A DNA stretch of 13,031 bases from a virus. Taxonomy: Duplodnaviria > Heunggongvirae > Uroviricota > Caudoviricetes. The stretch lies in IMG/VR virus record IMGVR_UViG_2548876858_000019, one strand, 5' to 3'. Below are positions 2,125-13,031 of this stretch, piece after piece; the first letter of the stretch is position 1, and every line of letters begins with the position of its first letter. The notes beneath the pieces are model-generated. The model was not told where the DNA came from. It ran no database searches and was given only the letters and a program-made list of their open reading frames with translations. The translations under genes and the position numbers were made by a program.

Positions 2125-2200
2125 TGTATCGAATTTGACACAATACCCGCCCGCAGTAATCAGACCGTCAAGCAAATATCGTTGTACTGTTCACGACACA
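2125..2200 (+). promoter_or_regulatory. two TGT-N12-ACA dyads (Ogr/Delta-box-like) upstream of the portal gene
   Basis: TTGTATCGAATTTGACACAA (2124-2143) and TTGTACTGTTCACGACACAC (2182-2201); each has exact TGT-N12-ACA spacing and shares 14-15 of 20 positions with the dyad upstream of the sid-like gene. Confidence 0.4.
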
Positions 2201-2236
2201 CCTGATCACTCAAGAATTGTTCACAGCGAGAAAAAT

Positions 2237-3262
2237 ATGGATAACCCGGACAAAACTCCCGTACCTGAGGTCACTGTAGCAACAGAACCGCAGCCCTCTG
2301 CAGAATGCTTCACCTTTGGCGATCCCATTCCGGTACTGGACCGGCGCGAGCTGCTTGATTATGTGGAGTGCGTACAGATTGATCGCTGGTATGAACCGCC
2401 GGTCAGTTTTGCCGGGCTGGCACGTACCTACCGCGCTGCCGTGCATCACAGTTCACCAATTGCTGTTAAGCGTGACATTCTCAGCAGCACCTTCATCCCA
2501 CACCGCTTGCTCAGCCAGCAGTCTTTCGCCCGTTTCGTTCAGGATTATCTGGTGTTTGGTAATGCTTATCTGGAAAAGCGCACCAACTGGCTGGGTGATG
2601 TCCTCTCACTGGAGCCAGCGCTGGCAAAGTATACCCGGCGCGGCGTTGACCTAGAATCCTACTGGTTTGTGAACTACGGCCTGACGATGCAGCCTTATGA
2701 GTTCACCAGAGGCAACATTTTTCATCTGATGGAGCCGGATATTAACCAAGAGATTTACGGGCTGCCCGGTTATCTCTCCGCCATTCCGTCAACCCTGCTC
2801 AACGAGTCCGCAACGCTGTTCCGTCGGAAATATTACATCAACGGCAGCCATGTAGGCTTCATCATGTACATGACCGACGCTGCGCAGAATCAGGAGGATG
2901 TGAACAACATCCGCAAGGCAATGAAAAGTGCCAAAGGACCGGGCAATTTTCGCAATCTCTTTATGTACTCACCCAATGGCAAAAAAGATGGCATCCAGAT
3001 CATCCCCCTATCCGAAGTTGCGGCGAAAGATGAGTTTCTGAACATCAAGAACGTGAGCCGTGATGACATGATGGCAGCGCACCGTGTGCCACCGCAGATG
3101 ATGGGAATCATGCCGAGTAACGTTGGGGGGTTTGGAGATGTAGAAAAAGCCAGCCGTGTTTTTGTTCGCAACGAACTGATGCCGCTACAGAAGCGACTGC
3201 AGGAACTGAACGACTGGTGTGGCGAGAAAATAATTAGTTTTGAACCTTATACACTTGAGTAA
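2237..3262 (+). CDS. phage portal protein, P2 Q / PBSX-type
   Basis: 341 aa from ATG 2237 (track ORF starts at TTG 2135; trimmed); portal-like clip motif RDDMMAAHRVPPQMMGI; length close to P2 Q as I recall it; ends at TAA 3260-3262 before a terminator. Confidence 0.7.
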   Translation: MDNPDKTPVPEVTVATEPQPSAECFTFGDPIPVLDRRELLDYVECVQIDRWYEPPVSFAGLARTYRAAVHHSSPIAVKRDILSSTFIPHRLLSQQSFARFVQDYLVFGNAYLEKRTNWLGDVLSLEPALAKYTRRGVDLESYWFVNYGLTMQPYEFTRGNIFHLMEPDINQEIYGLPGYLSAIPSTLLNESATLFRRKYYINGSHVGFIMYMTDAAQNQEDVNNIRKAMKSAKGPGNFRNLFMYSPNGKKDGIQIIPLSEVAAKDEFLNIKNVSRDDMMAAHRVPPQMMGIMPSNVGGFGDVEKASRVFVRNELMPLQKRLQELNDWCGEKIISFEPYTLE

Positions 3263-3263
3263 T

Positions 3264-3289
3264 AAAAAAGCCACTGAAGTGGCTTTTTT
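3264..3289. terminator. bidirectional rho-independent terminator between portal gene and gene Y
   Basis: AAAAAAGCCAC-TGAA-GTGGCTTTTTT: GC stem with 4-nt loop flanked by A6 and T6, so a U-run follows the hairpin on both strands; 1 bp after portal stop and 8 bp after Y stop. Confidence 0.65.
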
Positions 3290-3291
3290 AT

Positions 3292-4257
3292 TTAATCGGG
3301 AAGGTTACGTAAATCGATATATGAGAAAAATGCGGCACCTTTCTCAGTTAACTCGTATCGAAGATATCGATTTTCCATTATTGGCGTTGTTTTGAGTAGG
3401 CCATGGACCATCATTAACGTGCAAACATTTCTAACCAAAAAACCAGCTAAGTCAGTCGAATTTGATCTTAACCCAGAAAGAATAGTTCCTCTATACAGCA
3501 AAATGAGTCGCATTGCTGTTGTTTTAACTGGCTCTGGAGTTTCGGATAATTTTGTCGGGATCGTTAACTGTGTATTTTCAAATAGCTTATATATTTTACT
3601 GAACTCTTCCTCAGATGGTTTTTTTACTATAGCTTTACTTTCAGGAGAACGTGCAGCTCTGAGAAGTTCAACCTCAGATTTTAAAGCTTCATTTTCCTTC
3701 GTTAGTTTAGATATTTGTTCTATTAACACACTTGACTCTGATATTTCCTTTCCAGAAACCCACCCAAGGAGATTTCTCTCGACACCAATTTGAGGAAGTG
3801 TCTTATAAATTGATATTTGTATATCTTTAATATCCCGAAAAAATTCCACCGGATACCCCTTGACCTTTTGTTTGAAAGCTTCATATTTTGTCGGGTTATC
3901 TAATTCAAGAACTTCCTTACCAACTGTTTTAACTTTTTCATCTAGATATTCGTCATCAATGACTATCGAAAATAGAGGTTTGTTTGTACTTAAAGCATAA
4001 TCATATTCGAGCTCTGTATAGCAATAATCACTGCCGGGAGCAATCGTTCCATAACGCCCTCCCAGAATAAGGATGTAGATATCTGACTCATCTATCCAGC
4101 GCTTAATAATTTCTAACTGGCTTCTGTCTCCAGGCTTAAATAGCTCCATTCCCGCAGGTATATGCCCGGCAGTTAATATGGCACTTACCGCAGCTTGCCT
4201 TTCTTCAATGAGGTCTGTAAAAGTTGATGAAATGAAAACTTGAAATTTCCTATTCAT
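3292..4257 (-). CDS. DUF4062-like domain protein with coiled-coil and C-terminal domain of unknown function (candidate defence cargo)
   Basis: 321 aa from ATG 4255-4257; N-terminus MNRKFQVFISSTFTDLIEERQAAV...ILILGGRYGTIAPGSDYCYTELEYDYA fits the FISSTF/ER/GGRYG/TExEY signature I associate with DUF4062; central coiled-coil (ISKLTKENEALKSEVELLRAA); visibly AT-rich; terminators on both sides. Confidence 0.8.
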   Translation of the reverse strand: MNRKFQVFISSTFTDLIEERQAAVSAILTAGHIPAGMELFKPGDRSQLEIIKRWIDESDIYILILGGRYGTIAPGSDYCYTELEYDYALSTNKPLFSIVIDDEYLDEKVKTVGKEVLELDNPTKYEAFKQKVKGYPVEFFRDIKDIQISIYKTLPQIGVERNLLGWVSGKEISESSVLIEQISKLTKENEALKSEVELLRAARSPESKAIVKKPSEEEFSKIYKLFENTQLTIPTKLSETPEPVKTTAMRLILLYRGTILSGLRSNSTDLAGFLVRNVCTLMMVHGLLKTTPIMENRYLRYELTEKGAAFFSYIDLRNLPD

Positions 4258-4703: not shown

Positions 4704-4976
4704 TCAGACAGGGATTTGCTGGCGGCTTGATAACTTTGATGCAGAGCCATAGCGATTGAGCGTTTGCTGTTGTTTTTCCGGCATTTGTGCTTTGTCTGAT
4801 TCCTGTTCATTGCGCCGGGGCTTCATAATTATCTTATCCACACTTTCCAGAGCGGTAAATGTGCAGGAACATTCAAGATTCTGGCACTGATACCATGAGC
4901 GTTTAACCGACGGTGCTTCATAGGCGGTGGTTCTGGCGTGTGCAACGGTGCCGCATTCAGGACATTTCAGCGCCAT
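4704..4976 (-). CDS. Ogr/Delta-family zinc-finger late-gene transcription activator
   Basis: 90 aa, MALKCPECGTVAHARTTAY...YQCQNLECSCTF: C-x2-C...C-x4-C motif and overall pattern of P2 Ogr / P4 Delta; ATG overlaps the TGA of the upstream sid-like gene (ATGA). Confidence 0.85.
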   Translation of the reverse strand: MALKCPECGTVAHARTTAYEAPSVKRSWYQCQNLECSCTFTALESVDKIIMKPRRNEQESDKAQMPEKQQQTLNRYGSASKLSSRQQIPV

Positions 4977-5737
4977 CAGATACCCTCCATATCACGGTTA
5001 CGTTTCTGCAGCTCTTCACGTTCCTGACGGATCTTCATTTTGTGAAGGGCCGCCGGTGACGGGATTTTGCTTAAATCGACACGAGCCGCATAATCCGGCG
5101 CAACGCCCGCCAGTTTAAACACAGGGTCCAGTTCCGGCATCGCAGTGTTAGCAAGAGCCGGTTTGGTGATATGTTTGTGAATAAAGTCTTTCAGCAGTGT
5201 GTCCGGGTCATTAACTGAATTCACCACCCCCACAACGGCACTGGCTTCCCGCCCCATTGTGGTTTTGAGCAGGCTCAGTGTCTGGATTAACGCCTTACCA
5301 TGCGCCTGCATGAAGTCTTCCCAGATTTGCTTTGCGCGAATTTCCACAAGGGTGTTATGTGCGCTGATATACTGCCCGGCTAATTTCCCGGCTTCCTGCG
5401 GTAATAAGGCATTTTCGCTTTCCTGAGCTGCCAGCAGTTCATCAAAATCCTCAAGCGTTTCTCGTCCCAGCGCAATTTCCGTGCGCAGTTTTTTCATTTC
5501 CTTTGAGACTACGCCCTGACTTTCACGAAACAGCGTGCGCCACTCCTCATTCAGCGCGTTCGTCGTGGCTTCCATTTCAGCCCGGCGCTGGCGGATTGTC
5601 GCAATATTATCCGCTGCCGCTTTCTGCCGACGACGTGCTTCAAGCCATGCGCTTCTGGCTGTATTCAGGGTTTCCATTGCCTGCTGCGTTACAGCCGGAA
5701 AAGTGGAAAGGTTGTTATTCTCTGCGGTGTTGTTCAT
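4976..5737 (-). CDS. Sid/Psu-family protein (P4 capsid size determination-like; Psu-like not excluded)
   Basis: 253 aa, coiled-coil rich; segment AGQYISAHNTLVEIRAKQIWEDFMQAHGKALIQTL matches the Psu/Sid family pattern as I recall it; sits directly upstream of and coupled to delta as sid does in P4; AGGAGA Shine-Dalgarno before ATG 5735-5737. Confidence 0.65.
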   Translation of the reverse strand: MNNTAENNNLSTFPAVTQQAMETLNTARSAWLEARRRQKAAADNIATIRQRRAEMEATTNALNEEWRTLFRESQGVVSKEMKKLRTEIALGRETLEDFDELLAAQESENALLPQEAGKLAGQYISAHNTLVEIRAKQIWEDFMQAHGKALIQTLSLLKTTMGREASAVVGVVNSVNDPDTLLKDFIHKHITKPALANTAMPELDPVFKLAGVAPDYAARVDLSKIPSPAALHKMKIRQEREELQKRNRDMEGI

Positions 5738-5771
5738 GACTTCTCCTGCCGGGTTGGTTCGTTACGTCAAT

Positions 5772-5827
5772 TGTGTCGTGACTGACACAAGCGCACTATC
5801 GGCGCTCAGTGTGTGGTGGCTGGCACA
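5772..5827 (-). promoter_or_regulatory. Psid-like late promoter with two Delta-box dyads
   Basis: TGT-N12-ACA at 5772-5789 (within TTGTGTCGTGACTGACACAA) and at 5810-5827; centres 38 bp apart and about 43 and 81 bp upstream of the sid-like ATG, consistent with activator sites near -18 and -55. Confidence 0.55.
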
Positions 5828-5914
5828 ACGGGCGTTTGCGGTTATTCAGACGCGGCCATGACAGCCAGCCAGATAAAAATGCCTCTGTTTCAGCCTGCTT
5901 TATGTCCCGGATGC

Positions 5915-6110
5915 GGTGAAACAGGTGGAACAGGTGTTACAGCATTGTTTTGTAAAACATTTATATGCACATCACAGGTGAAACATCGCAGGTAACAAGG
6001 TGGAACAGCGGATCGGCTGGCGTTCCACCTGTTCCACCTCACTATTTCAGAAGGTGAAACAGGTTTAGCCCTTGTAAAATACGGGTGTTCCACCTGTTTC
6101 ACCTGTTACC
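5915..6110. repeat. iteron array, candidate replication origin / crr-like site
   Basis: At least nine copies of the 9-mer GGTG(A/G)AACA or its complement TGTT(C/T)CACC: plus orientation at 5915, 5924, 5977, 5999, 6053; minus orientation at 6021/6030, 6086, 6095, with tandem pairs; AT-rich stretch 5941-5970 in the middle; 28 bp downstream of the primase stop. Confidence 0.7.
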
Positions 6111-6137
6111 CTTAATAAATAAGACTCACGCAAAGCC

Positions 6138-8810
6138 TTAACCCGGCACCTCGCTGTTGAAGACATAGAGTCTGCGGGGATTCATCTCTGGCGGGCGAAT
6201 GGTTGTCTGCAGCTTGCCATCGGTGGAGGGCAGCAGGTATCCACGATCCGCGCACAGACGCGCCACCTTGCGCGGGTCAAATCCCCGGCAGATTTCTTTC
6301 CAGCCGGACGGCATGACGTAGAACGTGGTGACGGCCTCCGTGCCCTGCGCGGTACTGCCTTTCTCCACCCTGCGCCAGCCCACCATATTGCCGGGGCGGT
6401 TACGCTCGTCGTGCCAGTCAGCAAAGCGGCTGTACTGATTCGCGGTAAAGAAGCTGCGTACCTGCTCCAGTGCGGCAATATCTTCCTGATTGGCGGTGTG
6501 CCCGCGATCTTTCAGCCATGCGTTCAGGCAGACGCGGGTTGCCCGCAGCGCTTCACCCTCAGGCCAGCCGGTAATACCCAGCCGGGTTGCCAGCTCGCCC
6601 GCCATCGCCACCAGTGCAAAGCGGTTCACAGCCCGGCCTACCTGATTACCCGCATCTTTCGGGGTCAGGGCGGCTGTATATTCCTTCATCAGTGACTTTG
6701 CCTGTGCCGTCAGCCCGTTAAGGTCAGCGGTCAGGGCTTTCAGCCACTCCCTGAACGGCGAACCGTAGTAGCTGGACGTGGCCCACTCCAGATGTTCCGC
6801 CAGAGCCTTGCCGCTGTCGAAGCCGTGCAGCTCCTCAAATACGCCAAATTTCCCGGAATCGCTGGGGATCTGGATCATCCTGACTTCCATCCCGGCAAAG
6901 GTACGCTCACCGGCTTTTGCCGCATGTTCGGTCAGTGACAGCTCGCCGGTTGAAAAGAACAGCAGCCGCCACTGCTTACGGGTGCGCAGCTCACCGTCCG
7001 TACCGGCACGGCCCTTGCCCTGACCGTTTGCCAGCATGTAGGCGATATTACCCGCCTCGCGTCCGTCCACCTCCCGGATCTCATCGAGCATCATGGCGGC
7101 ATCGTTGCGGCGGCTGGCGCATCCCTCCAGCGCGTTGCCGGTTGCCCGCCACGTCTGCCAGTAATCAGGCCCGCCACAAACGGAGGTTGCCGCTTTCATG
7201 GTGGTGGTCTTACCGTCAGTCGATTCCCCCTTGAGGTGGTAGCCGCCGCCGTCCATCCCAACCAGCCGTAACAGGGGTGCAGCAAAGGCCAGACTGACGG
7301 CAAACGCCACGCGGGAGTTACCGGTGCAGTAACGGGAAACGTGCTCCCGCCATTCCTCCGTTGTACCTGACACACGGAAATCGCGCCCCTGCACGGAAGT
7401 GGTCTGGAGAATGACACCCTCTGCACCTTCACCGCTGACCTCATCCTGCAGGACGTAAACCTGACCATGCCAGCCAGTGCGGCTGACGCAGGTCACGCGG
7501 CGTTCCGGTTTACACAGCGAGATATATTCCATCAGGCGGGCGCGGGCCTCACCGGTGGTGCTGATATAGGACAGCCCGTTAACCAGCAGTACCCGGCGTA
7601 GTTCCTCACCGCTACCACTGAGCATTTCCATCGGCATCGCCCAGCGGCGGCGCTCTCCCCATGTATCTTCCCACTCCAGCAGTCGCCCGAAATTACCGCC
7701 ATCAGCATCGCAGGTGATTGCCGTCACGCGCAACGGGTTGCATATTTTGACGTTCTGGATCTCCGTCTCACCGTTGCGCTGTACCTGTTTTTCATACCAG
7801 AGATATTCCTGGGTAAGACGGAACCCGTGCGGCAACTGCGTGCGGCCTTCTCCGCACAGTACAAGACCGTTACGAAAGGCTTCACGGGCACGTGTAATAC
7901 CGTGCTCACGGTGGAAGTCATTCCAGTCAGCTTTAATTTCTCCCGGTGGCAGCGTCACCCAGCCACCGACTGATTTTGCCGCCCGTTCAGCAAAGGATCT
8001 GCCGGGATTCTCGCCCCCGTCCTGAAAATCGTTATCACCGGCGATGATAATTTTTACCTCAGGCCAGCGTGCCCGCAGCGCCTGTGCGACGTTGGGCAGG
8101 TTGCCCGCCGATATGGCCGCCACTACGCATCCGGCGGTGAGCTGGCTTACCGTCAGCGCCGTGGCGTAACCTTCGGTAATCACCACCTGTACCGGCGGTT
8201 CAGACGGTAACGGGCTGAGCGCCACAAACGCGCCTTTCATCGTGCTGCCGGGCAGTATGCTTTTTTCACCCGTCGGGGCGATAAGCTGTGCACCGGTCAC
8301 GGCTCCGGCGTTCGTCGTGAGCGGTAACAGCAGGGAACCGGCAGGGAAATCCTTACCACTGATATGCTGCACGCTCCCGGTCAGGGAGGCCGGGTATCCG
8401 GCGAACCCTTTTCCGGTCAGATAGGGGCTTTCTCCCGTGTGACTCTCTTTCATCAGGGCCGCCACGGTAAGGCTCATATCGCGTTTAGGGGCTTTTTGCC
8501 TGGCGGGCTTAACGGGCAGTTCCTGCACATCCGGCACATTAAGCACCTGCGCCACCTCCTGCGCTGCCTTTCTGATGCCGTAACCGGTTATGAGCTTAAC
8601 CAGATCCAGACCATCACCATTGCCGCACTGGCTGCAAATCCACGTCCCGCGCCCGTCGAGGTCATCGAGGCGGAAGCGATCCTTGCCCCCACATTTCGGG
8701 CAGGGACCGTGCCTGCCGTTTTCAGGTACATCAATACGCAGCATCTGCAGAATGACGGGCCATTTTCCCCGCGCTGCGGCTGAAATCTGCGTAACCGTCT
8801 GTGTTGTCAT
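6138..8810 (-). CDS. P4 alpha-type primase-helicase (zinc finger + Toprim + P-loop NTPase)
   Basis: 890 aa; N-terminal HGPCPKCGG...CSQCGNGDG zinc finger; Toprim-like ITEGYATALTV and IIAGDNDFQDGG; Walker A GESTDGKTT; GGGGGA Shine-Dalgarno; ATG overlaps the TGA of the upstream ORF. Confidence 0.85.
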   Translation of the reverse strand: MTTQTVTQISAAARGKWPVILQMLRIDVPENGRHGPCPKCGGKDRFRLDDLDGRGTWICSQCGNGDGLDLVKLITGYGIRKAAQEVAQVLNVPDVQELPVKPARQKAPKRDMSLTVAALMKESHTGESPYLTGKGFAGYPASLTGSVQHISGKDFPAGSLLLPLTTNAGAVTGAQLIAPTGEKSILPGSTMKGAFVALSPLPSEPPVQVVITEGYATALTVSQLTAGCVVAAISAGNLPNVAQALRARWPEVKIIIAGDNDFQDGGENPGRSFAERAAKSVGGWVTLPPGEIKADWNDFHREHGITRAREAFRNGLVLCGEGRTQLPHGFRLTQEYLWYEKQVQRNGETEIQNVKICNPLRVTAITCDADGGNFGRLLEWEDTWGERRRWAMPMEMLSGSGEELRRVLLVNGLSYISTTGEARARLMEYISLCKPERRVTCVSRTGWHGQVYVLQDEVSGEGAEGVILQTTSVQGRDFRVSGTTEEWREHVSRYCTGNSRVAFAVSLAFAAPLLRLVGMDGGGYHLKGESTDGKTTTMKAATSVCGGPDYWQTWRATGNALEGCASRRNDAAMMLDEIREVDGREAGNIAYMLANGQGKGRAGTDGELRTRKQWRLLFFSTGELSLTEHAAKAGERTFAGMEVRMIQIPSDSGKFGVFEELHGFDSGKALAEHLEWATSSYYGSPFREWLKALTADLNGLTAQAKSLMKEYTAALTPKDAGNQVGRAVNRFALVAMAGELATRLGITGWPEGEALRATRVCLNAWLKDRGHTANQEDIAALEQVRSFFTANQYSRFADWHDERNRPGNMVGWRRVEKGSTAQGTEAVTTFYVMPSGWKEICRGFDPRKVARLCADRGYLLPSTDGKLQTTIRPPEMNPRRLYVFNSEVPG

Positions 8811-9190
8811 ATTTCCCCCTGATACAGCGATACACCCGAGCTGCAGAAGTCATCAAATGCCGCCGGAAGTGTGCGGTACAGCTCCGCCATCACTTCACAG
8901 CCGCGCACAGTCAGTACCGGTGGCGCGGTCAGCAATGATGGCTCCAGCATGTCAGTCAGCAGCGCCAGTGCAGCCGCTGCTCCCTGTGCTTCGCCATATT
9001 CGTTAATCAGTGCGCACTCGATATGCAGGGCAATGGCCATTTCAATACGTTCAACCGTCAGGCTGTGCGGACCATAGTGATCGCAGCCGGTTTCGGTCAG
9101 CGCTTTCTGGCGCCAGGCCGATGCAATAGCCCGCCGGTAAAGCGCAGTGGTCATTTCTGCCGGAAAAATAGAAACCTGCGGCTGGTTCAT
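8807..9190 (-). CDS. hypothetical protein (replication-module small ORF)
   Basis: 127 aa; strong AAGGAGG Shine-Dalgarno 7 nt before ATG; ATGA overlaps at both ends with neighbouring ORFs; no recognisable motif. Confidence 0.5.
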   Translation of the reverse strand: MNQPQVSIFPAEMTTALYRRAIASAWRQKALTETGCDHYGPHSLTVERIEMAIALHIECALINEYGEAQGAAAALALLTDMLEPSLLTAPPVLTVRGCEVMAELYRTLPAAFDDFCSSGVSLYQGEI

Positions 9191-9471
9191 TGGGTGCCTC
9201 CTTCAATCAGTTCGCAACTGTGCGCAATATCCGTCAAATCTGCCCGCAGGTACTCCATCAGCGCGGCGATGCCTGGCGCACATCCTGCATCCAGCGTTCC
9301 GCCCTGCGAGGGGTATTCAGAAAAGAGAAGCTGCAACATGTCGCAGGCCTTTCTGGCGCGGTCCAGCTTTCCGAAACCGTCCTCTGACAACCCATACGCA
9401 AAAGCACCGCTATTGTGTTTTTCAGGCAAAGCGTGGCCCTGAGCACCGTTGTGCCCGTTTGAAATATTCAT
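9187..9471 (-). CDS. hypothetical protein (replication-module small ORF)
   Basis: 94 aa; ATG 9469-9471 with GGAG upstream; stop overlaps the next start (ATGA). Confidence 0.45.
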   Translation of the reverse strand: MNISNGHNGAQGHALPEKHNSGAFAYGLSEDGFGKLDRARKACDMLQLLFSEYPSQGGTLDAGCAPGIAALMEYLRADLTDIAHSCELIEGGTQ

Positions 9472-9502: not shown

Positions 9503-9862
9503 TCAGAGAAACTTTGAATAGTGACTGTCGTCAGGTTCAGCAGAACGCCGTATGCTGCGCTCCCGCCAGCGGGTAAATACCACCGACGGATGCAGCGTCA
9601 GCGAGCCAGAGCCGCTACCCCCCGCGGGAGCTAGCGAAGGTTTAAAGAGCGGGGCATTAAACAGGCGCGTATACCGCTGCTCAAACCATGCCAGAGGGCA
9701 GGAAGAAAGCTTATTGTCGCTGTCATGACGAATCAGCACTTCACAGCTGAATTCAGGGTTAACCAGCGCCACGGAGGGCGAGGCTTCAGTTAATCTGATA
9801 ATCGTGACAGTCCAGCCACGCTCATGCTGCCAGCGTTCGCCGGGTTGCGGATAATTACGCAT
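9503..9862 (-). CDS. hypothetical protein
   Basis: Track ORF starts at TTG 9892; first ATG at 9860-9862 is preceded by GGAGGTG and overlaps the stop of the upstream small ORF (ATGCGTAA); C-terminal half is low complexity (AGGSGSGS). Confidence 0.4.
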   Translation of the reverse strand: MRNYPQPGERWQHERGWTVTIIRLTEASPSVALVNPEFSCEVLIRHDSDNKLSSCPLAWFEQRYTRLFNAPLFKPSLAPAGGSGSGSLTLHPSVVFTRWRERSIRRSAEPDDSHYSKFL

Positions 9863-10031
9863 GTTCACCTCCACAGGGAATGCGACCGGCAAAGCTCAGC
9901 ACATAGTCCGGGGCAAGTCTGCGCCGCGCTGAGCGCTCGTTATCTGCGGTGATCCTTAACATCACAGGACGGGCATTGCGTTGACTGCGGTTGATCGCCG
10001 CAAATAACCAGGTACACTTCTGTTTAGCCAT
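9855..10031 (-). CDS. hypothetical small basic protein (first gene of the leftward operon)
   Basis: Track ORF starts at GTG 10085; ATG 10029-10031 preceded by GAGGT gives 58 aa MAKQKCTWLFAAINRSQRNARPVMLRITADNERSARRRLAPDYV...; coupled to the next ORF. Confidence 0.35.
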   Translation of the reverse strand: MAKQKCTWLFAAINRSQRNARPVMLRITADNERSARRRLAPDYVLSFAGRIPCGGEHA

Positions 10032-10113
10032 TTTCGTTACCTCATCTAACGCTTTGGTCAGACGCCTCGGCAGTGCCGCAAACACTCCGGGGCGTTGCTA
10101 TTTTGATTCCTTG

Positions 10114-10169
10114 TGTGTAATGTGTCATTACACATAAGCACATTACAATAGGTGTAATTGACGTGTCAA
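10114..10169. promoter_or_regulatory. operator-like palindromes in a divergent promoter region
   Basis: Perfect inverted repeat TGTGTAATG-tgt-CATTACACA (10114-10134) and palindrome TTGACGTGTCAA (10158-10169) overlapping the GTG start of the ribbon-helix-helix gene; lies between the leftward small-ORF/primase operon and the rightward RHH gene. Confidence 0.45.
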
Positions 10170-10342
10170 CACACAAGAACGAAAGACGTGGTAATCCACC
10201 ATTCCAGTTCAGACTTGACCCTGAATTGCGTGAGTTAATGGAAGAAGCACAGCAGCAGGATGGTGATGAATCACTGGCTGCTTGGATCAAACGCATTATC
10301 CGCAAAGAGCTACAAAGTCGTGGTTCCGAACCAAAGAACTGA
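10163..10342 (+). CDS. putative ribbon-helix-helix (Arc/CopG-like) DNA-binding protein
   Basis: 59-aa frame from GTG 10163 to TGA 10340-10342, absent from the ORF track (below its 60-aa cutoff); VSTHKNERRGNPPFQFRLDPELRELMEEAQQQDGDESLAAWIKRIIRKEL has the basic N-terminus, short beta-strand and two helices typical of RHH regulators; AGGTG upstream; the antisense 121-aa track ORF looks non-coding. Confidence 0.45.
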   Translation: MSTHKNERRGNPPFQFRLDPELRELMEEAQQQDGDESLAAWIKRIIRKELQSRGSEPKN

Positions 10343-10352
10343 TAAATACATG

Positions 10353-10379
10353 GGGAAGATTTTCTTCTTTCCCATTTTT
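10353..10379 (+). terminator. possible terminator after the RHH gene
   Basis: Imperfect hairpin GGGAAGA-tttt-cTTCTTTCCC followed by ATTTTTC. Confidence 0.3.
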
Positions 10380-10393
10380 CTAAGGTCGTCATA

Positions 10394-10603
10394 TTATTTA
10401 TCAGCATCTGAGGATTGAGCTTTTACCCACTGTCTAATTTCTTGTGCATCGTAAACAGTTACCCGTTTTGAAATACGTGTGGATTTTGGAAATTCAGGAT
10501 TGTTTTTTTCCCAGCGCCAGAGAGTAACTGTGCTTACTTGCAAAAAGTCAGCAGTAGCCCGTGGGCGGGCATGCCCGGTGATAGGGTAAGTTTTTAATGT
10601 CAT
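10394..10603 (-). CDS. alpA: AlpA/Vis-family phage transcriptional regulator
   Basis: 69 aa; TADFLQVSTVTLWRWEKNNPEFPKSTRISKRVTVYDAQEIRQWV fits the AlpA-type helix-turn-helix pattern; typical size and position next to a P4-type integrase. Confidence 0.7.
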   Translation of the reverse strand: MTLKTYPITGHARPRATADFLQVSTVTLWRWEKNNPEFPKSTRISKRVTVYDAQEIRQWVKAQSSDADK

Positions 10604-10609
10604 GAAATT

Positions 10610-10637
10610 ACCTGCCGTGTTATGTAATGAACACGGC
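10610..10637. other. 10-bp-stem hairpin immediately upstream of the alpA start
   Basis: CTGCCGTGTT-(8 nt)-AACACGGCAG; on the minus strand its 3' arm runs into the alpA ribosome-binding site (CAGGTAATTTCATG). Confidence 0.4.
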
Positions 10638-10710
10638 AGATGATGGCAAGGTTAGGGCTAAATTATCAGTGCCACTATTTTGTTTTTATGATGGTATAAA
10701 ATATTACCAC

Positions 10711-11685
10711 TTAAAATCTTCCTGCTTTAGATGAGCTAAGACATTCTTTTATCTTATCTTTTCCAAGTTCAACCTTTGTTTTTGGATTGTTTCTTTCTGC
10801 CACGATTTTATCTGCCCACGCGTCAATAGTCAGTTTTCCTCGTTTTCCATTGCAAGATGCTGGGTCATTTAGTAACCAATAAATAGCTGCTTTGTACACT
10901 GCCTCTCTTTTTGTTGCTGATGCTTCAACATTACCATGCACTCTTCGGATGCTTTCGATGCTGGATACACCACCATTCACATAGCTGGGTAGCTCTTTGC
11001 CAACACCGTTATCTAATTTTTCTATTTGGTATCTTGTTAAATAGATATCATCCAGTGTTATATTTCCAATAATATTTTTATTAGATGGAGATACTAATCC
11101 CTCTATTGATGATAAGCCTTCGAAAGGGGACATTGCTAATATTACCCACTCATCACTGCCAAATGCAGCATTAGTGAATGGCATATTAGCTTCTTTAAAA
11201 GAAATATCATGTGCTAATAGCCTTGCTTTACCATATACCTTTAGTTCTTTGTATAATGAAGATGTTGGGCTGATGACACATATAGACCACAATCCAGAAA
11301 GTAAGATTAATGGGCTTTTTATATTTGGTTTGTTTTCTAAATGGTATATTTGTTTTGGAGGTGAAAATGGCTTATCTTCTGTATAATCAATATCGAATTT
11401 TGCTTTTGGTATGAAATGGCTTAATGCAGATTTATTACTATAGTTTAATACTCTGGGTGGGTACATGTTTTCCCAATCTTTAAAATCTCCACCTTTACGC
11501 ATCATCATTAGCGCAGCTTCGAAACCATTTAATTCTAAGCAAAATTCGATAATTCCAATTTGAGCAAAATGGATAAGGTCATCAATTTGGCAATTAAGTA
11601 GTTCAGCAGCTCGTTTTAGGGAGCAAAATTCCATTACAGGAATACTATTCCTTTCCCAAACATTTAATCGTGTATTATCGCTCAT
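10711..11685 (-). CDS. hypothetical protein X, AT-rich, between integrase and alpA
   Basis: Track ORF starts at TTG 11763 overlapping the int stop; ATG 11683-11685 has a good AGGTGA Shine-Dalgarno and gives 324 aa starting MSDNTRLNVWERNSIPVMEF; no motif I can name; visibly AT-rich. Confidence 0.6.
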   Translation of the reverse strand: MSDNTRLNVWERNSIPVMEFCSLKRAAELLNCQIDDLIHFAQIGIIEFCLELNGFEAALMMMRKGGDFKDWENMYPPRVLNYSNKSALSHFIPKAKFDIDYTEDKPFSPPKQIYHLENKPNIKSPLILLSGLWSICVISPTSSLYKELKVYGKARLLAHDISFKEANMPFTNAAFGSDEWVILAMSPFEGLSSIEGLVSPSNKNIIGNITLDDIYLTRYQIEKLDNGVGKELPSYVNGGVSSIESIRRVHGNVEASATKREAVYKAAIYWLLNDPASCNGKRGKLTIDAWADKIVAERNNPKTKVELGKDKIKECLSSSKAGRF

Positions 11686-11759
11686 CACGTCACCTGTATG
11701 CACATATGGTAAAATGGGGCGAATAGCAGACTTTACTACTATTAGCCATTTTCTTATTT

Positions 11760-13031
11760 TCAAACAACGCGTAGTTTTTTCATTTTATAGGGGGCAATAT
11801 ATCTATCAGTGTTAGCTTCAATATAATTAGACCACCATTGCATCATCCGACGACGTTCATGCATATGCTGAGCTAAGTGTACATAAGCGGCTCGCACTTC
11901 ATTTCGTTCTTGATGGCTCATTTGCCGTTCTACTGCATCCCTCGACCATAAGCCTGATTCTGTCAGGGCTGAGCACGCCATTGCCCTAAATCCATGAAGG
12001 CAAATGTCCACCTGCGTGTCGTACCCCATAATTCTTAATGACTTATTAACTGTGTTCTCACTCATTGGTTTGTAAGGGTTACTATCTCCGGGGAAAATAA
12101 GTTCATACTCACCACTTATTTTTTTAATAGCTTCGAGAACATCAATAGCTTCATTAGATAATGGAACATAATGAATACTGCCCATTTTTGCCCCACGCTC
12201 TGAATATTTTACCCCATCAATTCTTTTTCTTTGAGCAGGAATAGTCCACATTGCATTTTCAAAATTAATTTCCTCCCATCTTGCGTGTCTCAGTTCACTG
12301 GAGCGAACAAAAGTATGAAGAGAAAATAATACTGCCAGCTTAGTTAACGGCCTCCCTGTATAGCTATCAATTTTTGATATTAATTCGGGTAATCGTTCTA
12401 ACGGAAGTGCAGGGCGATGCTTTATTTTGGGGCTGGAAATTGCTCCTCTTAGATCATGGGTAGGATTGTATTCAACAATTCCACGCTGAATAGCGTACCG
12501 GAAAACGCTTGCAAGAGTAGTTTTCACTCTTCCTGTTGTTGCTCCAATTCCCTGATCACTCATCCTCACCAATAATGGCAACAGGTCACTTGTTTTTAAT
12601 GAGTCGATGGGTTTATTTCCGATATATGGGAAAATATGATTTTCCATTTCTCTTAAAATTTTAGTGCGGGTAATCTCTTTCCATGAGGGATGGCCTATAG
12701 AGCCTTTATGCCACTCTAAAGCGATTGTCTGGAATGTAGCAGAGGCGGGTTCTGTTGGCGCTGCTTTTTTAGATACTCTGGGATCAACACCGTCGGCTAA
12801 AAGTTGCCTTGCTTCATCTCTACGCTTACGGGCAAGTGCCAGCGAAACGTCTGGGAAAACGCCCAAAGCCAGCGTAGCTTGTTTGCCGTTAAATCTGTAG
12901 TTCATTCGCCATGCCTTGGTCCCGTTCTTTTTAACTAAAAGATACAGGCTTCCCCCATCCGTCAGTTTGTAGTCTGTTTCTTTGGGTTTAGCGTTTTCAA
13001 CTTTCTTGGGTGATAGCTCATTTAGTGCCAT
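11760..13031 (-). CDS. tyrosine recombinase, P4 / CP4-57 IntA-type integrase
   Basis: 423 aa; N-terminal arm-binding region (YKLTDGGSLYLLVKKNGTKAWRMNYRFNGK); catalytic-region HGFR (HxxR) and tyrosine in RAAYVHL; start codon is the last three bases of the window, facing the presumed tRNA. Confidence 0.9.
   Translation of the reverse strand: MALNELSPKKVENAKPKETDYKLTDGGSLYLLVKKNGTKAWRMNYRFNGKQATLALGVFPDVSLALARKRRDEARQLLADGVDPRVSKKAAPTEPASATFQTIALEWHKGSIGHPSWKEITRTKILREMENHIFPYIGNKPIDSLKTSDLLPLLVRMSDQGIGATTGRVKTTLASVFRYAIQRGIVEYNPTHDLRGAISSPKIKHRPALPLERLPELISKIDSYTGRPLTKLAVLFSLHTFVRSSELRHARWEEINFENAMWTIPAQRKRIDGVKYSERGAKMGSIHYVPLSNEAIDVLEAIKKISGEYELIFPGDSNPYKPMSENTVNKSLRIMGYDTQVDICLHGFRAMACSALTESGLWSRDAVERQMSHQERNEVRAAYVHLAQHMHERRRMMQWWSNYIEANTDRYIAPYKMKKLRVV

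Follow-up and report, generated by a model that had tools for sequence, protein, structure and literature searches.

Phage-inducible chromosomal islands (PICIs) of Gram-negative bacteria are controlled by AlpA, an activator that is their experimentally known master switch and early-gene regulator, and no global repressor of them has been identified (PMC6092414). In the PICIs of Gram-positive bacteria (Staphylococcus aureus pathogenicity islands, SaPIs) the regulator Stl or Rpr is encoded divergently from the excision and replication operon and is placed to silence the satellite until a helper arrives (PMC6092414). In P4 the CI/C4 antisense RNA, with its seqA/isrK target downstream of PLE, keeps the leftward operon off in the prophage (PMC10111431). 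We have analysed a 13,031-nucleotide stretch of viral DNA, IMG/VR record IMGVR_UViG_2548876858_000019 (the window), which comes from a P4-like Escherichia coli satellite integrated beside a tRNA-Arg gene and of which nine complete genomes carry an identical or nearly identical copy. P4 has the order vis, early genes, DUF5375 and alpha in common with this element. Our subject is a gene for a 59-residue ribbon-helix-helix (RHH) protein located between alpA and the primase operon, together with the symmetric DNA boxes that precede it. We lean towards the view that the protein would act as an autoregulated repressor of the promoter of the leftward operon, which comprises the gene for an Icd-like cell-division inhibitor, three small open reading frames (ORFs) and a TOPRIM/DUF927 primase gene.

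In the window the integrase gene and alpA read leftward, the RHH gene reads rightward, and the operon running from the Icd-like gene through the primase gene is leftward (Table 1). An earlier note on this DNA, made without database searches, had described the RHH gene as divergent from the primase operon; this is what we find, with conserved symmetric boxes sitting over the candidate leftward −35 element and over the RHH start codon. A gene divergent from the replication and early operon, with symmetric sites over the promoters (here consensus predictions), has the layout of a master repressor. The arrangement is reminiscent of the SaPI regulators; however, Stl is a much larger helix-turn-helix repressor, the folds are unrelated and there is no homology. 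In addition, int and alpA are here found on the opposite side and run convergently to the RHH gene, and the switch demonstrated in Gram-negative PICIs is AlpA, an activator. The position between vis/alpA and the epsilon/alpha (primase) operon is that of P4 immunity, and the task proposed here for the RHH protein is the same, but in P4 the agent is an RNA acting through premature termination, and an RHH ORF is absent. The RHH protein would act one step earlier than the RNA, at the promoter.

The 59-codon GTG-start frame reported in the earlier note is present on the plus strand. It had been called unannotated, which is incorrect, as RefSeq holds exactly the same coding sequence, WP_024235422.1, named variously "hypothetical protein" or "YlcI/YnfO family protein". 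Coding potential was evaluated over 53 ungapped codons in 35 sequences, comprising the window and 34 genome loci. The ratio of non-synonymous to synonymous divergence (pN/pS) of the plus frame is 0.14, with saturated synonymous sites (pS 0.79), and the variable columns at codon positions 1, 2 and 3 number 26, 17 and 49, so that position 2 varies least. The frame is open, constant in length and RHH-like in all but one of 42 genome loci; the exception has a stop at codon 2, and translation there probably starts at the ATG of codon 5. The start codon is GTG in most relatives and ATG in Xenorhabdus and in some Pantoea, Erwinia and Pectobacterium. In Mannheimia and in one metagenomic relative the GTG has a clear GGAG before it, and in one subgroup (L027 to L036) an ATG at codon 5 with AGGTG ahead of it is the likelier start. 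From these patterns the frame is a real and strongly conserved gene. The Cys/Ser-rich antisense ORF of 121 residues (10042-10407, minus strand), which the earlier note had thought implausible, does overlie it and we regard it as spurious. Its pN/pS is 0.30, in-frame stops interrupt it in 10 of the 35 loci, and it has no homologues, no family match and no RefSeq coding sequence. It stays open in the window because its third codon positions coincide with those of the plus frame, and for the same reason periodicity alone cannot tell the two frames apart. That coincidence is what could be said for the idea that there is no plus-strand gene at all and that conservation acts purely on DNA or RNA, or on the minus-strand ORF. 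Given the antisense stops, the doubled pN/pS and the open, constant-length frame in 41 of 42 loci, this idea is barely credible; the synonymous and non-synonymous pattern, proposed in the earlier note as a check, favours the plus frame.

The protein consists of an N-terminal basic arm, a β strand (PFQFRL), two helices and an intervening GDES turn, followed by seven poorly conserved residues after helix 2. An AlphaFold2 model built from a 37-sequence alignment places helices at residues 20-33 and 38-52 with an extended segment (11-19) before them, the block-mean confidence (pLDDT) being 94 over residues 21-50. The strand is unformed in the monomer model, as expected where the strand pairs across a dimer. 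The model has the β-α-α topology of the RHH superfamily (about 45 residues) and matches the solved structures of AmrZ, Arc and NikR. The strand shows the alternation of hydrophobic and polar residues seen in the superfamily, with F14-Q15-F16-R17-L18 nearly invariant, and between the helices D33-G34-D35, followed by E and S, forms an invariant turn of the superfamily's G-x-S/T/N type. PHROG 228 ("Arc-like repressor") matches the protein with an E value of 4.9e-6. A search of the family profile against the PDB, a check that the earlier note had suggested, returned only RHH proteins (CopG/TacA, VapB26, NikA, HP0222, MazE7 and ArtA, E 0.02-1). The family profile was needed, since the single sequence gave spurious coiled-coil-like matches only. 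Pfam does not match the protein itself, but among 30 distant family members three match RHH_1, three TacA1, and others HicB, NikA-like or Omega_Repress families. Each of these lines is weak, and all agree. We are therefore confident that the protein has a minimal Arc/CopG-type RHH fold, as its profile had suggested to the earlier reader.

The protein may be compared with Arc and Mnt of the P22 immI region, CopG and AmrZ. It is similar in size (Arc has 53 residues), in the β-α-α order, the glycine-containing turn and the N-terminal basic arm, and in the short symmetric DNA boxes lying over promoters. It differs in having no significant pairwise similarity to these proteins, no Pfam RHH match and an unrelated, putative operator, and in being located in a phage satellite, not in phage immI or a plasmid copy-control region. 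A closer comparison is with the YlcI/YnfO family (NF041551), for which we found no published function. The EcCICFT073 protein WP_000190587.1, from the prototype Gram-negative PICI, also has 59 residues, occupies the same divergent slot between alpA and the Icd-like/primase operon and has the same predicted strand-helix-turn-helix register; newer RefSeq releases give the window protein the YlcI/YnfO name. The EcCICFT073 protein is a genuine member, with 67.4 bits against NF041551, whereas the window protein scores 20.1 bits (E 5e-4), below the cutoff of 30, which places it outside the family, and the comparison of profiles is weak (E 0.015). EcCICFT073 has two AGGTGTGGCCCAC direct repeats instead of the boxes and retains the adjacent leader hairpin. 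We note that in this region (L049 6243-6860; CFT073 NC_004431 1380242-1380859) the gene is followed by a second, Arg/Lys-rich ORF of 57 residues on the same strand. Matches to DNA related to the region occur in 902 of 5426 E. coli genomes and extend over most of it in 162.

The box sequence GTGTCAnnACAC is present upstream of the gene at both 10122 and 10163, in two boxes, S1 and S2, whose centres are 41 bp apart (about four helical turns). Conservation was counted in 29 relatives that align without gaps. Positions 10117-10125 (GTAATGTGT) and 10130-10133 (ACAC) are invariant in all 29, and A10134 in 28, next to a gene whose synonymous sites are saturated. All four GTGT/ACAC pairs of S1 are invariant (29/29); in S2 three pairs are invariant (29/29) and the fourth is kept in 24. 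S2 is kept even in the subgroup with the likely codon-5 start, where it is probably 5′-untranslated, and a similar box lies on the start codon in distant subfamilies. Five of the 11 GTGTMAW heptads in the 13 kb window fall within 55 bp, where about 0.02 would be expected (shuffle mean 5.75 per window), although the pattern was picked after the region had been seen. The architecture recalls the dense direct and inverted 7-bp heptad arrays near promoters that are bound by Omega of inc18 plasmids and ParG, and one distant family member matches Omega_Repress. The likeness is in site architecture only; the heptad sequence is unrelated, binding here is putative and the element has no ParA-type ATPase.

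The earlier note had drawn these sites as palindromes. The perfect repeat with 9-bp arms is there, but the second "palindrome", over the start codon, is an interrupted repeat. About 0.5 perfect repeats with 9-bp arms and loops of 0-8 nt are expected per shuffled window, so the first repeat alone is weak evidence and the case for function rests on conservation. Its inner core pairs (10117/10131, 10118/10130 and 10121/10127) are paired in 29/29, while for the outer three complementarity is seen in only 11-21 of 29 relatives, with no compensation. In the interrupted repeat the right arm, which is part of S2, is invariant; the left arm varies (TTAAC, TTTAG, TTAAG) and G10160 is neither conserved nor compensated. 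The conserved units are thus the GTGT-N4-ACAC boxes and the GTGTAAT heptads, and the pattern is that of a set of sequence-specific sites and not of a hairpin.

The boxes are strictly linked to the gene. Among 2.9 million IMG/VR viral contigs there are 46 exact matches to the S1 region; in 45 the RHH gene follows at the same 46-bp distance and the remaining one is cut by the contig end. All 45 scorable matches adjoin the gene, which lends no support to targets in trans in helper phages. The boxes also change with the protein. In the subfamily with a KQIAFRV strand they are one base shorter (TGTCA-N-ACAC) and again cover the start codon and a site about 37-48 bp upstream of it. No better argument is available than this co-variation that the RHH protein binds the boxes, as we infer, and it speaks against their main ligand being AlpA, the primase or a helper factor. 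A role for the heptads as replication iterons was also considered and set aside, as they are constant while the primases differ (32-45% identity, or other primase families).

A word-index search gave 122 clusters of homologues, most more than 80% identical, spread over the Enterobacterales in Escherichia, Klebsiella, Enterobacter, Pantoea, Serratia, Yersinia, Proteus, Xenorhabdus, Photorhabdus and Arsenophonus; relatives from Pasteurellaceae are 56-69% identical. An exhaustive profile search found only 44 representative clusters (E ≤0.001) and the RHH family is therefore narrow. Of 5426 complete E. coli genomes 245 have the gene and its boxes, and 32 of the places are on plasmids. The order int, alpA, RHH, Icd-like, primase is found in the P4-like satellite of the window, in a classical PICI with TerS and PerC at tRNA-Pro (L046) and in a capsid-forming PICI at cspD (L047); a remnant has the RHH cassette only (L045; plasmid NZ_CP021681.1 69497-69732). 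The RHH protein is 84-95% identical where AlpA is 35-91% identical or undetectable, the Icd-like protein 43-53%, the primase 32-45% and the integrase 24-56%. The gene and its upstream boxes thus form a cassette far more conserved than its neighbours. The plasmid copy lies beside a BREX system (genes for WYL, DUF1819, DUF1788 and BrxC) and insertion sequence elements with no integrase or primase gene nearby, apparently a satellite remnant; the cassette with its boxes is found at 31 other places on E. coli plasmids. In Citrobacter sp. wls619 (L030) two RHH genes lie in tandem on one strand (5769-5936 and 6001-6168), one product being 46% and the other 84% identical to the window protein; two elements may meet here, or a regulator may have been duplicated. 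A search of the literature for an RHH, YlcI or YnfO regulator in P4-like elements or PICIs found no characterisation; in a survey from 2026 "YlcI/YnfO" and "HicB" appear among the accessory genes of these elements, with no function given.

In the mechanism that we think most likely, RHH dimers would bind the GTGT-N4-ACAC boxes and the GTGTAAT heptads at 10115-10174. Occupancy of S1 would cover the candidate −35 of the leftward Icd-like/primase promoter, which lies inside the box, and occupancy of S2 would cover the protein's own start codon. Binding would thereby repress the leftward operon and limit synthesis of the protein itself, keeping a toxic division inhibitor and the replication genes off in the integrated state. 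The earlier note saw here, in effect, the immunity switch of the element, which the architecture and the co-variation of regulator and repeats make plausible. Induction would follow the expression of AlpA triggered by a helper phage. Relief might come from read-through of the alpA promoter, antisense across the RHH gene and into the operon, or from a helper-encoded factor; antisense read-through from alpA could thus contribute to induction. The RHH transcript ends in an intrinsic terminator whose stem has a predicted energy of −13.9 kcal/mol (z = −3.55) on the plus strand; on the minus strand the value is −9.5 kcal/mol and there is no T-run. Two leader hairpins lie on the Icd-like side. The larger, GC-rich one (10062-10095) shows compensatory changes in six of nine predicted pairs (19 loci) and is kept from Escherichia to Mannheimia. 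It is a candidate for a 5′ stabiliser of the mRNA, an insulator against rightward transcription or a regulator's target; on the plus strand a T-run comes after it, and in relatives the scan scores it as a terminator. The stem of the smaller one (10035-10051) varies in relatives with pairing kept (CAUUA..UAAUG, CGAUA..UAUCG), although RNAalifold did not pick it up. Weak Rfam matches to the traJ 5′-untranslated region and to miRNAs over the hairpin and palindrome are attributed to chance (E >3, far below gathering scores).

Several observations weigh against repression by the RHH protein. Immunity repressors usually diversify, and the RHH protein is unusually conserved for one. The leftward promoter was called in two of the four elements scanned (the window and L010; not L047 or L019). 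Consensus scans of four elements place the promoter of the RHH gene inconsistently; the rightward TACAAT −10 is specific to the window, its final T not being conserved in relatives, and the conserved TGTAAT/TATAAT hexamer (in the alternative TACACA-N18-T(G/A)TAAT) would start the RNA inside the GTG codon, which is poor for leaderless translation. Transcription could also be activated by an RHH protein bound at sites of this kind. To induce EcCICFT073, AlpA by itself is enough (PMC6092414). Lastly, the classical PICI L046 has the RHH cassette and also isrK and C4 RNAs, at 5621-5806, between its RHH and Icd-like genes. P4, the positive control in this search, gave C4 at 74.9 bits and isrK at 60.8 bits between vis and epsilon; the window has no match to C4 (RF01695) or isrK (RF01394) at gathering scores, nor at E ≤10 within 9800-10700, and of 12 related loci scanned L046 alone has both. 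That the window lacks these RNAs speaks, for its part, in favour of the repressor. The rule that the RHH gene replaces RNA immunity was thus rejected. Because L046 carries both, the RHH gene does not simply take the place of RNA immunity and could be a lesser layer; with AlpA as the known switch, the RHH protein is at most one layer of control. Some P4-like elements are without P4's RNA immunity, and protein and RNA controls coexist in some satellites.

The same boxes could be bound by the RHH protein as an activator or architectural factor, activating the leftward promoter or forming a looped S1-S2 complex for AlpA-dependent induction or excision. We consider this unlikely, as the candidate −35 is covered by S1 and the protein's own start by S2, positions typical of occlusion and not of activation, and the first gene of the operon, a cell-division inhibitor, would be expected to be kept off. 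Slightly less probable again is the suggestion that the boxes are mainly promoter elements, or sites for AlpA or for a host or helper-phage protein, with the RHH protein acting elsewhere, on helper-phage DNA or a protein partner. That the protein is so highly conserved from genus to genus, with diverging genes around it, could mean a conserved external partner, and AlpA is an experimentally shown regulator of PICI early genes (PMC6092414). Against this, the boxes stay constant while AlpA ranges from 35% to 91% identity or is undetectable, they change when the type of RHH protein changes, and no viral contig was found to have the S1-region motif without the gene beside it, so that there is no evidence for helper-phage targets.

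An antitoxin-like role, raised as an alternative in the earlier note, would have the protein neutralise the Icd-like inhibitor or another toxin by contact and repress itself through its RHH domain, as in type II systems. The family profile does have weak similarity to the VapB, MazE and TacA antitoxins, and the toxic Icd-like gene is the usual divergent neighbour. However, the gene is monocistronic, with no co-transcribed toxin, and is followed by its terminator (10350-10375) and then by the convergent alpA; the seven residues after helix 2 leave no toxin-binding tail; the Icd-like protein has only 43-53% identity in elements whose RHH proteins have 90-95%, and partners that bind each other would be expected to co-evolve; and the neighbour of the L045 plasmid copy is annotated as a hypothetical protein only. 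On these grounds an antitoxin is improbable. Partition-protein and relaxase-accessory roles were rejected as the element has neither a ParA nor a relaxase gene. It therefore seems to us that autoregulated repression of the leftward operon is the reading to prefer, with its weaknesses as stated.

Table 1. Coordinates of genes, sites and predicted signals in the 13,031-nucleotide window
Feature	Position	Strand	Remarks
Ogr/Delta zinc-finger gene	4704-4976	-	
Capsid-morphogenesis gene	4976-5737	-	
TOPRIM/DUF927 primase gene	6138-8810	-	
DUF5375 gene	8807-9190	-	
Two small ORFs	9503-9862, 9187-9471	-	
Icd-like host cell-division inhibitor gene	9855-10031	-	First gene of the operon; NCBIfam NF033153, E 1e-23, and RefSeq
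Small hairpin CGUUA-GAUGAGG-UAACG	10035-10051	-	Icd-like Shine-Dalgarno sequence in the loop, presented or sequestered
Conserved GC-rich hairpin	10062-10095	-	5′ end of the leftward (Icd-like) transcript
Candidate leftward sigma-70 promoter	10100-10128	-	ATGACA (10128-10123), 17 nt, CAAAAT (10105-10100); transcription start near 10093; consensus scan
Perfect inverted repeat TGTGTAATG-TGT-CATTACACA	10114-10134		9-bp arms, 3-nt loop; extends to 13-nt arms at 10110-10138 (12/13 complementary)
Five GTGTMAW heptads	10115, 10122, 10127, 10152, 10163	+, +, -, +, +	Within 10115-10169
Box S1, GTGTCATTACAC (GTGT-N4-ACAC)	10122-10133		Overlaps candidate −35 hexamers of both divergent promoters
Candidate rightward promoter, weak	10122-10149	+	GTGTCA, 16 nt, TACAAT; consensus scan
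Interrupted inverted repeat TTGAC-GT-GTCAA	10158-10169		5-bp arms, 2-nt spacer; over the start codon
Box S2, GTGTCAACACAC	10163-10174		Covers the start codon and codons 2-4
RHH protein gene, 59 codons	10163-10342	+	GTG start; RefSeq WP_024235422.1
Intrinsic terminator of the RHH transcript	10350-10375	+	10-bp stem, then TTTTTCT
AlpA/Vis-family regulator gene	10394-10603	-	Pfam PF05930, 29.3 bits (cutoff 21), and RefSeq; convergent with the RHH gene
350-residue ORF	10711-11763	-	
Integrase gene	11760-13031	-	

Some features elsewhere in the element were observed in passing. A perfect inverted repeat with 10-bp arms, CTGCCGTGTT-(ATGTAATG)-AACACGGCAG, is located at 10613-10638, its end 10 nt upstream of the start codon of alpA. 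The hexamer TGTAAT, also present in the heptads next to the RHH gene, occurs in the loop; the repeat could be an attenuator or terminator ahead of alpA, or a regulator site. The Rfam int-alpA RNA (RF02996) was found between integrase and alpA in four relatives (L003 9184-9248, L007 8713-8780, L011 9527-9596 and L014 7896-7963), with no match in the window at the gathering score. Past the sid-like and delta genes, RefSeq annotates a "phage portal protein" gene (about 2237-3262, plus strand) and a DUF4062 gene (3292-4257, minus strand). This part of the window (2135-4257) is the place of the variable cargo and defence hotspot described for P4-like satellites. Between the convergent ends of the two genes, at 3262 and 3292, a long perfect palindrome (3264-3289), in which matches with 9-bp arms and loops of 2-8 nt are nested, probably serves as a bidirectional terminator.

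The gene is annotated, its fold is known and so is the kind of element that carries it; the result is a solid and moderately interesting lead and not a new kind of system. Should the protein prove to be no more than a minor autoregulated regulator, the gene is an ordinary one for a small DNA-binding protein. A wider and still doubtful possibility is that the RHH cassette, together with the YlcI/YnfO-type genes in the same slot of EcCICFT073 and several hundred other E. coli genomes, supplies the master repressor of Gram-negative satellites (P4-like elements, PICIs and capsid-forming PICIs), as the functional counterpart of Stl. Were this true, the Icd-like/replication operon would be held off until convergent transcription of alpA, or a conserved protein of the helper phage, overrode the repression, and the unusual conservation of the RHH protein would reflect interaction with the helper. 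Three satellite families and many genera have kept a small RHH gene in the space that separates alpA from the replication operon. This gene with its operator-like array is a concrete and easily tested candidate for what keeps Gram-negative satellites silent.

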